A stretch of DNA of 64,000 nt from Candidatus Uhrbacteria bacterium (GCA_016188385.1 JACPHV010000002.1:24116-88115), one strand, 5' to 3'. Counted from the first letter of the stretch, positions 21,798 through 26,472 are shown. The notes: generated by a model from the letters alone, not told the origin. Translations and numbers: made by a program.

Positions 21798-22733
21798 GTG
21801 ATGAAACAAAAAAAAGCACACGGGGAAGGATTATTTCAAGAGCTTGAACAGCGCGTCTTTAGACCGCTCTTTGATGTTGATTTTCAAGCAGAAATACAGG
21901 ACATTGCACAGGGCGACAACCAAATAAGCTTCACTAAAACAGAATTGAATGAACACGACAGAGAACAACTTGCGCGTTATATTGCGAGCCGTAGCAGAGA
22001 TAGAGGGAAAGAAGGTGATTTTTCAGACGAGAGCAGTTGGTACGCCGTGGACCGATTGGTGTACAATATTGGTGAAACCAATCTTGATATTTTTAGCTAT
22101 CTTCCGGATGGATACAAGATTTTATTCTGCCCCAACAGCAAGGTATACAACGGTGCCGTTGATTATGAAAATAGAATTATATGCGTTACCAGTGATATTT
22201 CCTCGCTTGGCAGTATTGCAACTATTCTACATGAAGTAGGACACGTAAAAGACAATGAGCGTTTGAAAAAGCTAGACGTAACAGAATTGACAAAAGGTGG
22301 CGATTGGGAAGAAAACAGAGCGGCTGAGCAAATGCGCAAAGAAAGAGAAGCGAGTCTATACGCTCTTCGCAAAATGTGGAAAGAGTTACGAAAAAACGAG
22401 CAGACCAAAAAAGACATACTGCTCTATCTGAAAAATATGGCGTATTATTCCCACTGCATAACAGGGTTGCAAAATATCTCCACAGCACGTGCCATGGCGC
22501 ACCATAATCCATACGACCCTGAACTTGATATGCAAGAAGAATTGGAAAGACAACGTTACGATGCTTGGGAAAAATTTAAACAATCTGATGAGTACGCGGC
22601 ATGGAAAAGTATGAAAGAATTTACGCAATTGGATGAGTTCGAGGAATACGGTGCATGGTGTCAATGGGTAGAAGAAACGGGGAAGGTTGACGATCCTGAA
22701 TTTTTGGGTAAATACTTTGGATTCGAACAATAA
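21798..22733 (+). CDS. Hypothetical protein with an HExxH motif (ILHEVGHV). Putative zinc metallopeptidase-like.
   Basis: HEVGH lies in a Gly/Ser-rich context. Shares a YLP…IAT…HEVxH block with the protein at 24658-26472. The start may be GTG 21798 or ATG 21801. An upstream ORF from 21743 could join it through a frameshift in the A8 run. Confidence 0.5.
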   Translation: MMKQKKAHGEGLFQELEQRVFRPLFDVDFQAEIQDIAQGDNQISFTKTELNEHDREQLARYIASRSRDRGKEGDFSDESSWYAVDRLVYNIGETNLDIFSYLPDGYKILFCPNSKVYNGAVDYENRIICVTSDISSLGSIATILHEVGHVKDNERLKKLDVTELTKGGDWEENRAAEQMRKEREASLYALRKMWKELRKNEQTKKDILLYLKNMAYYSHCITGLQNISTARAMAHHNPYDPELDMQEELERQRYDAWEKFKQSDEYAAWKSMKEFTQLDEFEEYGAWCQWVEETGKVDDPEFLGKYFGFEQ

Positions 22734-22736
22734 TGT

Positions 22737-22766
22737 GTCTTGGCTTTTGGGTGTTCACCCCCAACC
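22737..22766 (+). repeat. Hairpin family D, copy 3. A partial 5' arm plus loop; the 3' arm is degenerate.
   Basis: gtcttggcttttgggtgttcacccc matches the 5' half of the copy at 24053-24101. Confidence 0.45.
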
Positions 22767-22823
22767 TTTTCGTTATTTAAACTAGATTATTCCTACCAGT
22801 TTGCTGGTCGAAGGTTCATTTGT

Positions 22824-22876
22824 TTGTATACATTGCTTGACACAAAATATACAAACTGGTATACTTTGTATACATT
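22824..22876 (+). promoter_or_regulatory. Fic gene promoter: consensus TTGACA (22837-22842), 17-bp spacer, TATACT (22860-22865). Flanked by two direct 11-bp repeats TTGTATACATT (22824-22834 and 22866-22876), each carrying the palindrome TGTATACA.
   Basis: Read directly. The repeats are 42 bp apart centre to centre. One abuts the -35 box and the other lies between the -10 box and the start codon. Confidence 0.55.
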
Positions 22877-22897
22877 CATAAAAGATGTAAACAAAAT

Positions 22898-24167: not shown

Positions 24168-24252
24168 ACACTGACTATGCGGCTCGGTCTCTTTCGAGAG
24201 ACTTCACCCATATTGCTCCCTGCGGTGCAACATCGCATAGCCAGAAACATTA
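24168..24252 (+). repeat. Structured repeat family B, copy 2.
   Basis: acactgactatgcggctcggtctctttcgagagacttcacccatattgctccctgcggtgcaacatcgcatagccag. The inner hairpin gtctct-ttcg-agagac replaces gggcttt-tcc-aaagccc of copy 1. Confidence 0.7.
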
Positions 24253-24392
24253 GCTTAAATACATTTTTACATATTCCCTTTTTGCCGATCCGCTTTTCGG
24301 ATTTTCAATAAGGAGGGAGAATTGGTTCTTTTTTTACAGGGGGGGCTGTCTGGCTGTCGCCAGCCAGTTCGGATGTTTTCTCCGCTCCCGCT

Positions 24393-24413
24393 GGTCGCTC
24401 CGAAAACGATTTT
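24393..24413 (+). repeat. Repeat C, copy 2 (ggtcgctccgaaaacgatttt), preceded by the hairpin ctggctgtcgccagccag.
   Basis: Compare 21717-21737. Confidence 0.45.
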
Positions 24414-24472
24414 TAATCGAATTTTGGCTTGAAATAAGGTACAATTTAAGGATTAAAAGTAAATTTGAGGAT

Positions 24473-24661
24473 ATGAAGAAACTAACACCCAAAAATCTTT
24501 TACAAAAAAGATCCTTGCGACTTAAAACGATTTATGACGAATATGTCGAGAGTCTTACGGAACTAAGAAAAAGACATCTTGATGAGTTTACAAGTTTCGC
24601 TCGGAAATTAGAGCAACAGAAAATTGATACGATCCGCAATTCACTTAAATCAAAAGTATGA
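24473..24661 (+). CDS. Small 62-aa basic/helical protein whose stop overlaps the start of the next gene (ATGA).
   Basis: ORF with a 4-nt overlap, suggesting translational coupling with the HExxH protein. Confidence 0.35.
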   Translation: MKKLTPKNLLQKRSLRLKTIYDEYVESLTELRKRHLDEFTSFARKLEQQKIDTIRNSLKSKV

Positions 24662-26472
24662 CCGATACTGAAATTAAACCAACACCAGAGTCACCGGATG
24701 GAGCAGTAGAAAAGCCAACGATACCAGAAAAACCAGAAGTACAAATCGAGACACCCGAACAACTTGATACACTCCGGGCCGAGGCAAAGCAAGGTATTGC
24801 GGATTTAGCGCGTACAGATACGGAGGCAACACTGGGTCGGATTGAGCGAGTTACGTCATCGATAGGTAAAGGCAGTGAAGAAGGCAAAACCATGGCTGTG
24901 CGTCAAGCAAGTGAAATCAAAGCAGTAGAGCAAACTACACTCATAAAGATTGAGGCCTCAAAAATTGGACAATCACTTTCCGCAATCCCAACCGGAGAAG
25001 ATTTTGAGCGCGTAGGAACTGGCGCGCCAGTTTTTGATGGTTCTGCCGAGGAGCAAGCCGCCTCGCAAAATTTATTGATTCGTCTGGAAACCGGACAAGT
25101 CGGCGGAAAACCAGCTACGATCGAGACCGAAGCAGTATCTACAGAGGTTGAGATTAATTTTAATCCGGGAGCGCATGCAGAACAACTTCGTGAAAAAGTA
25201 AAAGGGCTCCTCGGTCGTCCCGAAATTGATAATTTCTTTTCTCAATTGCACCAAGACGATCTAAAAGATTTGGTTGGCGTACTCTCGCGTGAAAGTATGA
25301 ATCCAAAACTTGGTCGTCTTGCTGACCTTTTAAGGTCATCAGTTAAGAGTAAGGATCAATTTGCACAAAATGCCGAAAAACACACAAAAGAACAAATACG
25401 GCAATTATTTGTACAATTCAAAACAGATTTCGACAAAGTATTGGATCAAGTATTTAGCAGAGCAGAGATTCTTGGAATGGCAGAACTCGACATAGATGCG
25501 GCAATGAAAAGGAGCAATGGATTGATTTTGTCACAACGAAGAATATTAGGGCCGGGGCCAATACAAGATTTTGTTGATTCGCTCGCCTATCGCGCACTTG
25601 CTGAGGTTCGAAAGGAAATTGAGGCACAGAAGAAAGCGCAACAATCAGCAGAAATACTAGAGGCTGTTGAAGCGGTGGAAAAAAGAGAAGAACCACAAGA
25701 ATGGCTCGATCAAAAAAGAGAAGCCGCATATGCAGAGTTTGGTAAAATTTTGTCAGAACTTGAAGAATCGGGAGGTGTGGAGGGAGTACAAAAATGGTAT
25801 GCGGATTTTTTCAATCCCGCCCTCACTGAAGCTGGACTTGAACCATTGAAACCAGAAGATGTTCAAAGTTTACGCTACTTAGACGTTATATCTGAATCAT
25901 CGTCTCGTATTGCCGGAAAAGAAATTAGAAGGCCGGTTTTAATTTTTACAAACATTGGGGAATATCAGCGTTTTTCATCACGTCTTCAGGGCGAACACGG
26001 CATGTCATCGCGTGGAATGTATCTGCCACGTGATATCTTTGCAGAAGGCGATTTACTTCGAGAAACAGGACTTCTTATTGCTACAGGAAATAAAGAATTT
26101 ATTGACCATGAAGTAAGACACTCTATTGACCCTAATCTTGAAGCTCGGAAAGGTTATGATGGTATTCTTGACGAAGCTTTCGCGTATTATCAACAGGATA
26201 TTGTTGAAGGGCGATCAGAGGCATACAGACATTTAGCAAAACCGGAAGATGGCCCATGGAGAAGATTTGCAGGTTCAATCGGAGGAGAGATTTACGGGGA
26301 AACATATTCAAAAGGCGCAGAGAAAAAACTATCTAGCGACGAACTGGCAAAATTATCTCAAGATGTCGTTGCCGCAATCCGATCTATTTCTGAAAAAAGT
26401 GGGCACGTGGAAACTCAACGCATTCTCGCACAAACAAAAAGTATTGAGGAATTACTTAGGTTGGCTAAATAG
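24658..26472 (+). CDS. Hypothetical 604-aa protein: an Glu/Lys-rich, predicted helical N-terminal region (~450 aa) plus a C-terminal HExxH (IDHEVRH) domain.
   Basis: HEVRH motif. YLPRD…LLIATGNKEFIDHEVRH parallels YLPDG…SIATILHEVGH of ORF 21798-22733. Confidence 0.5.
   Translation: MTDTEIKPTPESPDGAVEKPTIPEKPEVQIETPEQLDTLRAEAKQGIADLARTDTEATLGRIERVTSSIGKGSEEGKTMAVRQASEIKAVEQTTLIKIEASKIGQSLSAIPTGEDFERVGTGAPVFDGSAEEQAASQNLLIRLETGQVGGKPATIETEAVSTEVEINFNPGAHAEQLREKVKGLLGRPEIDNFFSQLHQDDLKDLVGVLSRESMNPKLGRLADLLRSSVKSKDQFAQNAEKHTKEQIRQLFVQFKTDFDKVLDQVFSRAEILGMAELDIDAAMKRSNGLILSQRRILGPGPIQDFVDSLAYRALAEVRKEIEAQKKAQQSAEILEAVEAVEKREEPQEWLDQKREAAYAEFGKILSELEESGGVEGVQKWYADFFNPALTEAGLEPLKPEDVQSLRYLDVISESSSRIAGKEIRRPVLIFTNIGEYQRFSSRLQGEHGMSSRGMYLPRDIFAEGDLLRETGLLIATGNKEFIDHEVRHSIDPNLEARKGYDGILDEAFAYYQQDIVEGRSEAYRHLAKPEDGPWRRFAGSIGGEIYGETYSKGAEKKLSSDELAKLSQDVVAAIRSISEKSGHVETQRILAQTKSIEELLRLAK

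Follow-up and report, generated by a model that had tools for sequence, protein, structure and literature searches.

Two HExxH genes as separate cargo of an integron-like cassette array in a Candidatus Uhrbacteria genome

In a stretch of 64,000 nucleotides from an uncultured Candidatus Uhrbacteria (CPR) bacterium, hereafter the window, two genes encoding HExxH proteins (A and B) are separate cargo genes of an integron-like gene-cassette array. A preliminary description had presented them as paralogues and had suggested effector or toxin roles from their neighbours. We instead favor, with moderate confidence, an account in which they represent two unrelated zincin-fold, probably zinc-dependent, peptidase genes carried as independent cargo. 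In this account, A would be a divergent ImmA/IrrE (M78)-like minimal gluzincin, while B would be a long-form member of a mainly CPR family possessing a C-terminal thermolysin/M1-like gluzincin core, with its acidic extension of ~340 aa co-inherited with a translationally coupled, basic and helical 62-aa protein. The positions of the features discussed below are collected in Table 1.

With A and B, the CPR proteome gains two uncharacterised zincin families, of which A is divergent and M78-like, and B is sizeable, lacks a Pfam model and, in one sub-clade, comes with a small partner of its own. Both are useful for annotation and represent reasonable targets for biochemistry, though unsurprising in kind. 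They are outweighed by their genomic context, namely arrays bounded by attC-like repeats beside an Xer-like recombinase that lacks the domain held essential for attC recombination.

Table 1. Features in and beside the cassette array, with positions counted from the first letter of the window
Feature	Position	Strand	Description
Xer-like tyrosine recombinase	16050..16862	-	270 aa, divergent from the cassette array; Pfam Phage_integrase
Possible attI-like site	16912..16970	+	Solo right half (GTTATATGAAATACATGTTTTCCTTT from 16948), ~85 nt from recombinase start
attC-like repeat	19155..19275	+	Upstream of the FAD-oxidoreductase gene/RhuM pseudogene/A/Fic block; covariance model R1, 107.8 bits
Gene A	21743..22733	+	Putative M78/IrrE-like minimal gluzincin, ~329 aa if frame corrected; 21798-22733 is the downstream frame
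A8 homopolymer in A	21808..21815	+	One A too many for the frame shared by all homologues (sequence, translations, alignment)
HEVGH of A	22230..22244	+	H145, E146, H149; putative third ligand Glu182 at 22341-22343
Post-stop hairpin, truncated	22735..22764	+	ATTCACCCC-type loop, terminator-like, directly 3' of gene A
attC-like repeat	24151..24271	+	5' boundary of the small ORF and B cassette; covariance model R1, 106 bits
Small ORF	24473..24661	+	62 aa, basic, net charge +8; conserved partner of long-form B; ATGA overlap
B N-terminal extension	24658..25677	+	aa 1-340; acidic; no Pfam domain; conserved only among long-form members
B conserved core	25678..26472	+	Gluzincin-like catalytic domain (predicted); HEVRH 26107-26121 (aa 484-488); invariant Glu506 26173-26175
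attC-like repeat	26696..26815	+	3' boundary of the small ORF and B cassette; covariance model R1, 81.5 bits

The array, its repeats and the recombinase

The low-GC array holding A and B adjoins the recombinase gene and is transcribed away from it, an arrangement found in the window and in 7 other contigs, where relatives of the recombinase occur with the same repeats, always upstream and antiparallel. Given that the array is punctuated by attC-like structured repeats, we regard it as an integron-like platform. In the consensus of the repeat family, the AAC...GTT core is paired and the stem covaries. Among 28 copies, 91% of cells were paired compared with 27-40% in slid controls, compensatory changes were found in 15 of 20 pairs, and the AAC:GTT pairs were retained in 22-26 of the 26 distinct copies, with all copies being co-oriented. 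Folding of positions 19090-19335 as single-stranded DNA gave −57 kcal/mol (z=−8.3). The B module is bracketed by the repeat both in the window and in the related locus L005, with different neighbours, and a comparison of L003 with L001 revealed an extra DUF3788 cassette whose insertion junction coincides exactly with the repeat's GTT (GTTA). The small ORF and B would together form one mobile cassette, with an attC-like structured repeat at either end. Searches with Rfam (at gathering scores for the whole window, and at E up to 1 for 18.9-28 kb) and ARAGORN returned nothing, indicating that the repeats belong to no known RNA family and are not tRNA-derived.

The repeats could alternatively be selfish elements of the MITE/REP type, or RNA motifs, in which case the genes would not be cassettes. 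The palindrome at the window copy 19095-19328 reaches well past a canonical attC, the GTT core is degenerate in two of the three window copies, and the recombinase lacks the IntI-specific domain, all of which would suit such elements. However, the repeats of 8 contigs are confined to one side of the recombinase, co-oriented and antiparallel to its gene; the insertion polymorphism is cassette-sized with its junction exactly at GTT; and AAC/GTT stays nearly invariant while the stem covaries. We consider a MITE/REP or RNA-motif origin very unlikely on these grounds, and retain the reading of the repeats as attC-like cassette boundaries.

The recombinase scored 221.7 bits against the NF040815 model (XerA/integron integrase; cutoff 220) and 209.7 bits against TIGR02249 (integron integrase), the latter under the cutoff of 265, and it aligned end to end with XerA (4a8e). 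When aligned with VchIntIA (2a3v), its residues 179-201 cover IntI residues 183-249, with ~44 aa missing, and the IntI-specific additional domain looked for in this comparison was absent. In PMC9668308 (citing Messier and Roy 2001) and PMC8138268, this insertion is described as necessary for integron recombination. Because the recombinase does not contain it, the term integron applies here by analogy only. The array resembles integrons in its tyrosine recombinase diverging from a co-oriented array, in its imperfect palindromes, whose 5'-AAC...GTT-3' core is paired and whose stems covary, in cassette insertion at GTT, and in cargo like that of chromosomal integrons (TA pairs, Fic and unknowns). 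By contrast, its recombinase is XerA-like and short of the ~44-aa insertion at 270 aa, the palindrome may extend past the 7-bp core, and some of the 'cassettes' are multi-gene.

We tentatively propose that both HExxH genes are cargo of an undescribed integron-type gene-capture platform of CPR bacteria, which would be run by a short Xer-like tyrosine recombinase without the IntI-specific domain. One of its cassettes would carry a new two-component module, namely a CPR-specific gluzincin with an acidic extension together with its 62-aa basic regulator. The literature that we searched contained no description of integrons in CPR/Patescibacteria, which does not in itself prove their absence. If the platform is active, integron-type gene capture would extend to CPR bacteria, with a bearing on the origin of integron integrases from Xer-like ancestors. 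The candidate attI-like site contains repeat families D12, I1 and I3 and a weak R1 match (E=0.039).

A second structured element, the post-stop hairpin, is found in full copies at 19045-19098, 24049-24098 and 26520-26572, and truncated both after gene A and from ~21606. It was rejected as an attC because it ends in GTT...AAC, the reverse of the attC order. Xer modules of the pdif type were judged less likely, the sites being all co-oriented and hairpin-structured.

The neighbours of A and B in the array (a RhuM pseudogene, Fic and a Phd/Doc-like pair) are likewise independent cargo, so that adjacency carries little functional information and is a weak guide to function. Homologues of A and of B in other contigs have neighbours quite different from those in the window. 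The RhuM, Fic and Doc neighbourhood is thus unusable as guilt by association for A and B.

Reading frame and family of gene A

The ORF described previously for A is present (311 aa, with HEVGH at aa 145), but its start at 21798 is an artefact. A homologues start with MxEKPxxTxKILEEA..., and the window encodes the same N-terminus from 21743 in a different frame. The extra A in the A8 run shifts the frame; seven A's would give ...DETKKAHGEGLFQEL, in agreement with ...EETKKA..EG.FQEL of the homologues. The additional A would represent a true frameshift, an assembly error or slippage. As assembled, A is cut short at its N-terminus and may be decaying, or reliant on slippage, in this genome.

In an alignment of 19 A sequences, H145, E146, H149 and E182 are invariant, and HExxH is kept in 20 of 22 homologues, the two exceptions being fragments. 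The structure model places HEVGH and E182 on successive predicted helices (137-159 and 170-197), and His145, His149 and Glu182 would be the metal ligands. The analogy with IrrE, ImmA and CapP suggests that A serves as a regulatory, site-specific protease. Its relation to these M78 proteins is nevertheless distant: window A stayed under the gathering score of PF06114 (15.1 versus 22 bits, E=0.02), as did the PF06114 matches found in 12 of 19 family members (best E=0.0023). In contrast to ImmA, IrrE (PprI) and CapP, A comes without a GAF-like sensor domain or an adjacent Xre/HTH gene, no such substrate gene being found beside A in the window, L001-L004, L021 or L022. It further differs from them at both ends: its N-terminal part is a distinct beta/helix region, and its C-terminal part is helical and rich in Trp and Tyr (W.KFK.S.EY..WK). 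As for minimal zincins of the ArdC and SprT-Spartan types, A has no detectable sequence similarity to them, only ~100-115 residues align, and A showed no recognisable ssDNA-binding domain.

Small ORFs of 76-88 aa lie upstream of A in L001-L004, L022 and the P0019 contig, and none in the window. A conserved partner of A was rejected, as the 88-aa ORF of L001 and the 76-aa ORF of L022 are unrelated and have no significant Pfam match; a third upstream ORF carries DUF5652. Sequence searches of the PDB with the A-family and B-family profiles yielded nothing meaningful, and tblastn with A and with the B core had no match among 50,697 phage records.

Protein B and its 62-aa partner

The ORF of B is present as described (24658-26472; 604 aa, with HEVRH at aa 484). 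Its C-terminal 225 aa define an unannotated family of 108 clusters at 50% identity, mostly from CPR bacteria, with the signature HExxHxxD-x14-E. HExxH was found in 103 of the 108 representatives, and 100 keep the motif of HExxH plus downstream Glu, with a modal spacing of 17. In an alignment of 44 family sequences, E127 is invariant while H105, E106 and H109 are each conserved in at least 90%. The domain model (pLDDT 94) has a motif helix at 100-110 and a Glu helix at 120-137, so the core would present HExxHxxD followed, 17 residues on, by a Glu on the next helix. Relatives of the family were found in neither Pfam, NCBIfam nor PDB, and Foldseek of the model against PDB gave no significant match. 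The model weakly suggests a gluzincin-like fold, and a thermolysin/M1-like gluzincin core would make B most likely an active metallopeptidase. Compared with thermolysin-like gluzincins (M1 with HExxH-x18-E, e.g., LTA4 hydrolase; M9, M49 and M4), B lacks a sequence match to any peptidase family. In contrast to M1 enzymes, the GxMEN exopeptidase motif is absent, by eye, from the sequence preceding HExxH (...ETGLLIATGNKEFIDHEVRH), as are the N-terminal beta domain and the C-terminal ARM domain; in addition, B has a conserved HExxHxxDP and Arg118, a SASEIAG..I.RPV motif further upstream, and the variable acidic N-terminus.

That N-terminus had been described as a Glu/Lys-rich extension of ~450 aa. 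The family-variable part is instead ~340 aa long and acidic (net charge −15; 12.7% E, 7.1% K). In BLASTP searches P0025, P0030, P0043 and P0031 aligned from aa 24-90 of B onward, and the majority of the remaining listed long forms only from ~aa 260-414 onward. Long forms (at least 450 aa) account for 36 of the 108 representatives, about two thirds being short.

The 62-aa ORF reported upstream of B is likewise present (24473-24661), its stop overlapping the start of B as ATGA, and was substantiated as a genuine, conserved and overlapping partner: each of the five members of its family lies directly 5' of a long-form B homologue (in the window, L005, L018, L013/L023/L024 and L025), and dN/dS ranges from 0.18 to 0.35. 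The overlap is again ATGA in L005 and L025 and amounts to 14 nt in L018. The small protein would most likely bind the B extension and control the protease as an inhibitor, a chaperone or an adaptor, as suggested by co-inheritance and opposite charge (+8 for the small protein, −15 for the B N-terminus). The partner is missing from the short forms of B with upstream regions read and from the long forms L017 and L019, indicating that it is dispensable for the catalytic domain as such.

The layout of this pair raises the possibility that B is a toxin and the 62-aa protein its antitoxin, in a new type II TA-like or effector-immunity pair. A small upstream gene overlapping a larger one is the classic antitoxin-toxin order, the two are inherited as a single cassette, and the array also holds a Phd/Doc-like pair and Fic; TA modules are frequent in chromosomal integron arrays. 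However, neither B nor the small ORF has a significant match in PADLOC, Pfam, NCBIfam or PHROGs, the 62-aa partner carries no recognisable DNA-binding motif, and most B-family members stand alone, partnerless, in ordinary chromosomal contexts, which would be unexpected for a toxic domain. We consequently regard a toxin-antitoxin pair as rather improbable, and a partner-controlled protease as the preferred reading.

Those same contexts would allow B to be a plain housekeeping peptidase in the cytoplasm of CPR bacteria, engaged in peptide turnover, with its cassette location incidental. The breadth of the family in Patescibacteria and the many members amid core genes (TsaD/Sua5, FtsH, HIT/HAD, TrkA) are consistent with such a role, as is the lack of a signal peptide or hydrophobic segment in B (maximal Kyte-Doolittle 19-residue score 0.78). 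By contrast, the contexts are non-syntenic and the module moves between genomes; simple oligopeptidases do not typically have a long acidic extension or a co-evolving partner dedicated to them, and the L005 copy of B contains an in-frame TAA stop, implying that B is dispensable there. A housekeeping role is thus unlikely, though it deserves weight beside the partner-controlled protease. No conserved operon emerged for B, its contexts varying among HIT/HAD, TrkA, P-loop kinases, FtsH, TsaD/Sua5 and one Ku-B-ligase operon.

The relation between A and B

The proposal that A and B are paralogues sharing a YLP...IAT...HEVxH block was not supported, their paralogy being not demonstrable from the sequences. 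BLASTP gave E=0.85 with an alignment outside the HExxH motif. With hhalign (probabilities of 0.2-4%), the two family profiles aligned over 18 columns at HExxH only (probability 4.3%), and the A-family profile against B alone left the motif unaligned. The supposed common block differs in spacing, with 44 aa from YLP to HExxH in A versus 29 aa in B, and 5 aa from IAT to HExxH in A versus 10 aa in B. The B family conserves neither YLP nor IAT, and IAT falls within the active-site helix in the model of A but in the preceding beta-strand in that of B. The two proteins do have 5 tripeptides in common locally (shuffle P=0.0016, selected post hoc). These tripeptides are, however, neither collinear, conserved, nor in equivalent secondary-structure elements, and given such differences the excess marks no equivalent positions. 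Moreover, His and Glu are 32 residues apart in A versus 17 in B, and the A and B families never occur together in the other contigs examined. Duplication within the island followed by divergence is therefore scarcely credible.

What the two proteins do share is a zincin-type HExxH, as the preliminary description had it, which proved conserved in each family together with an invariant downstream Glu. One or both could in principle be something other than peptidases, such as HExxH-type oxygenases, other hydrolases or catalytically dead scaffolds. This seems very improbable, because both families have an invariant catalytic Glu within HExxH and an invariant third-ligand Glu, as expected of working gluzincins. 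Zincin metallopeptidases were among the PDB matches of the predicted structures of A and B, those of B not being significant, and the zincins matched were mostly peptidases.

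An integron-like platform around A and B

The stretch from 16 to 28 kb of the window has a GC content of 0.37-0.44, down from about 0.48, and holds a platform in which a Xer-like recombinase is divergent from a co-oriented array of attC-like repeats (structured intergenic repeats scored with covariance model R1), the same layout being found in 7 other contigs. The recombinase passed the NCBIfam XerA/'integron integrase' model (221.7 versus 220 bits) and failed the integron-integrase model TIGR02249 (209.7 versus 265 bits). It aligned with Pyrococcus XerA end to end, and with Vibrio IntIA in two pieces, ~44 residues being missing at the IntI-specific insertion; unlike the integron integrase IntI, it is thus without the additional domain. 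This domain has been held to be defining and necessary for integrons (PMC9668308; PMC8138268), and Xer-like enzymes of candidate phyla have been put in a separate 'Cand' subgroup (PMC8138268). No description of integron-like arrays in Patescibacteria-type candidate phyla (CPR) was found in the literature searched.

Features of the window, and small ORF/long-form B pairs in the window and related contigs
Feature	Location	Strand	Details
Integron-like platform	16050-27900		also L001-L005, L021, L025-L029, L035, L037-L039
Tyrosine recombinase	16050-16862	minus	270 aa
Weak partial attC-like repeat	16912-16970		by recombinase
attC-like repeats	19155-19275; 24151-24271; 26696-26815		~120 nt
Array cargo		plus	transcribed away from recombinase: truncated aminotransferase, DHDPS-like gene, FAD oxidoreductase, RhuM, A, Fic, small ORF + B, Phd/Doc-like pair
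Aminotransferase-like ORF	17356-18246		
RhuM	20582-21604		in-frame TAA at 21212-21214
A	21798-22733		311 aa, HEVGH at aa 145
Small ORF	24473-24661		62 aa; stop overlaps ATG of B as ATGA
B	24658-26472		604 aa, HEVRH at aa 484
Phd-like ORF and Doc-family gene	26862-27555		
2150-aa ORF	27920-34372		directly after island
Post-stop hairpins	19045-19098; 24049-24098; 26520-26572		truncated copies at about 21606 and 22735
23-nt motif	21717-21739; 24394-24416		upstream of A and of small ORF
Small ORF + long-form B	window; L005; L025		ATGA overlap in each
Small ORF + long-form B	L018		14-nt overlap; B core 49% identical
Small ORF + long-form B	L013/L023/L024		8-nt gap; B core 39% identical

In contigs with A or B homologues (L001-L005, L021 and L025), the repeat lies between genes in every case and runs in the same direction as they do. 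It is also present in seven contigs with 47-81% identical recombinases (L026, L027, L029, L035 and L037-L039), always upstream of and antiparallel to the recombinase gene and never downstream. Among 26 distinct copies, 91% of cells pair versus 27-40% with the partners slid, and 15 of the 20 pairs display compensatory changes. The outer helix, a nearly invariant AAC paired with GTT, is like the R''/R' cores of attC.

The unit of small ORF and B has a repeat on both sides in L005, as in the window, with hemerythrin/cupin and EamA as neighbours in L005 and Fic and Doc in the window. A DUF3788 gene with one more repeat is present in L003 and absent between the same two genes in L001, L002 and L004, and comparing L003 (935-1765) with L001 (2300-2470) showed that in this cassette insertion polymorphism the sequences part precisely at the repeat's GTTA, where integron-type insertion at G|TT would put the junction. 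Judged from these sequence comparisons, the repeat-bounded B unit and the GTTA insertion appear to represent integron behaviour, and we regard the integron-like platform as the most interesting aspect of the locus. The preliminary description read effector or toxin roles from the position of A and B between RhuM and Fic/Doc; this adjacency reflects cassette accumulation rather than a functional operon, and the evidence speaks neither for nor against such a role.

Damaged cargo (the RhuM nonsense codon, a frameshift in A, the aminotransferase truncation and an in-frame TAA in the L005 copy of B) is consistent with silent cassettes being under weak selection. A single in-frame TAA (...AAEII*ETADKQKPFMGLKTW...) interrupts RhuM, which is therefore either a pseudogene created by nonsense mutation or a candidate for read-through. 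The aminotransferase-like ORF, the first gene past the possible attI-like site at 16912-16970, matched only Pfam model positions 90-360 and is N-terminally truncated. The Phd-like ORF (48 aa) overlaps the Doc-family toxin gene, whose 193-aa product extends ~60 aa past the Doc domain, and the same pair adjoins an A homologue in L021. The 2150-aa ORF carries many ...GNVGIGTTSP.AKLH... repeats, had no Pfam match and may encode a very large surface or adhesin-like protein.

Hairpins were also seen at or just past stop codons, with more copies in L005 (1492 and 3911), L014 (5708), L029 and L035; one of the copies comes after the B homologue of a Magasanikiibacteria MAG. Their stem is variable and covarying and the ~20-nt loop conserved (ATTCACCCC..TAATTCCC.CTCT); Rfam gave no match, and they may be terminators or protein-binding sites. 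The 23-nt motif GTCGCTCCGAAAAC(A/G)ATTTT, also found at about 1795-1830 of L005, looks like a segment from within the attC-like repeat and may therefore represent decayed repeat copies or a common 5' element.

A and B as separate HExxH proteins

A, the small ORF and B are annotated as hypothetical proteins (HYV71_00320, _00330 and _00335) on a 184-kb contig of Candidatus Uhrbacteria bacterium. The three ORFs, the HExxH motifs of A and B and the ATGA overlap are as first described, and HExxH is real and conserved in both families. By contrast, the claim that A and B are paralogues sharing a YLP…IAT…HEVxH block did not hold. BLASTP gave E=0.85 with HExxH outside the aligned part, the A-family profile left HExxH of B unaligned, and profile-profile comparison matched 18 columns, located at HExxH, with a probability of 4.3%. 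In A, HExxH is preceded by YLP at 44 residues and by IAT at 5, versus 29 and 10 in B. Neither tripeptide is conserved across the B family, and the modelled active-site helix begins with IAT in A, whereas in B IAT belongs to the strand ahead of that helix. The local excess of five common tripeptides (shuffle P=0.0016) is a post-hoc count at non-equivalent positions. There is thus no evidence of paralogy, and the closest link between the two proteins would be shared membership of the zincin superfamily.

The 22 A homologues are all metagenome- or MAG-derived and unnamed. H145, E146, G148, H149 and E182 are invariant in a 19-sequence alignment, as are A185, S186, A189, D206, L211, C220 and S263. 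A scored 15.1 bits against Pfam Peptidase_M78 (IrrE N-terminal-like), under the 22-bit cutoff, and such sub-threshold matches occurred in 12 of the 19 members, while three matched DUF6782 (putative metallopeptidase); PHROG 87 'metallo-protease' matched A at E=0.0098. In the AlphaFold2 model (mean pLDDT 82.9), a five-strand region is followed by helix 137-159, which carries HExxH, and helix 170-197, which carries Glu182. The invariant HExxH and Glu182, the sub-threshold M78 matches and the modelled helices suggest that A is a divergent ImmA/IrrE-like minimal gluzincin, a relative resembling M78 members that misses the formal family threshold. No Xre/HTH gene adjoins A in any gene context read (window and homologue contigs).

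All A homologues have a common N-terminus, MxEKPxxTxKILEEAxxVxEETxKA..EG. Because its counterpart in the window, MSEKPYDTQKILAEARAVSDETKK, is encoded from 21743 in another frame than the listed ORF, and the two frames meet only after removing one A from the A8 run at 21808-21815, gene A is frameshifted in this assembly by one extra A (21743-21816). This could be due to sequencing error, decay or slippage; GenBank annotates a truncated 310-aa product.

The B family and its small upstream ORF

A whole-protein search with B was swamped by the low-complexity N-terminus and returned one relative only. An exhaustive HMMER search with aa 380-604 gave 108 representative clusters at E <= 1e-3 and 80 at <= 1e-10, the 108 representatives being 150 to 805 aa long (median 320). 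Glu127 (Glu506 of B) is invariant in a 44-sequence alignment, H105, E106, H109, D112, R118 and A130 are at least 90% conserved, and the consensus reads HEIRHSIDP....R.GYD..L.E.FAYY; HExxHxxD...E is kept in 100 of the 108 representatives, among which the commonest His-to-Glu spacing is 17 residues. No family member had a meaningful Pfam match, and the family profile found no PDB sequences. The domain model is very confident (pLDDT 94.2, pTM 0.89), with the order strand, helix, strand, backing helix, strands, HExxH helix (100-110), Glu helix (120-137) and helical C-terminal half. B is thus the long form, and the founder, of an unannotated gluzincin-like CPR family, one sub-clade of which has a small partner of its own. 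Among GTDB representative genomes, the hosts are mainly Patescibacteria (Falkowbacteria, Saccharibacteria, Magasanikiibacteriota), together with a few MAGs labelled otherwise. No signal peptide or hydrophobic segment was found in B. Its closest homologue (78% identical), in L005, is split into 91-aa and 465-aa ORFs by the TAA at 2335-2337, a position that encodes Gln (CAA) in the window and in L025.

The small ORF proved to be a real gene. A profile search found five family members in 5.8 billion proteins, all immediately upstream of a long-form B homologue, and dN/dS was 0.18-0.35 (pairs with unsaturated dS) compared with 0.10 for B. The long forms in L017 and L019, and the short forms with upstream region read, are without the small ORF, which is therefore tied to one type of B N-terminal extension and not to the catalytic domain. 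The acidic N-terminal part of B (~340 aa, net charge -15) shows conservation in no more than a subset of the long forms (e.g. P0025, P0030 and P0043), and the small-ORF protein is basic (net +8). We infer that the latter binds to this extension and regulates the enzyme. It may act like an antitoxin, but neither the small ORF nor B matched a toxin/antitoxin-type domain.

In one genome, the long-form B homologue P0031 lies between Ku and ATP-dependent DNA ligase with 4-nt spacing or overlap (L019 1227-4568, and L020), a neighbourhood hinting that some members of the family might act on DNA ends or DNA-protein crosslinks.
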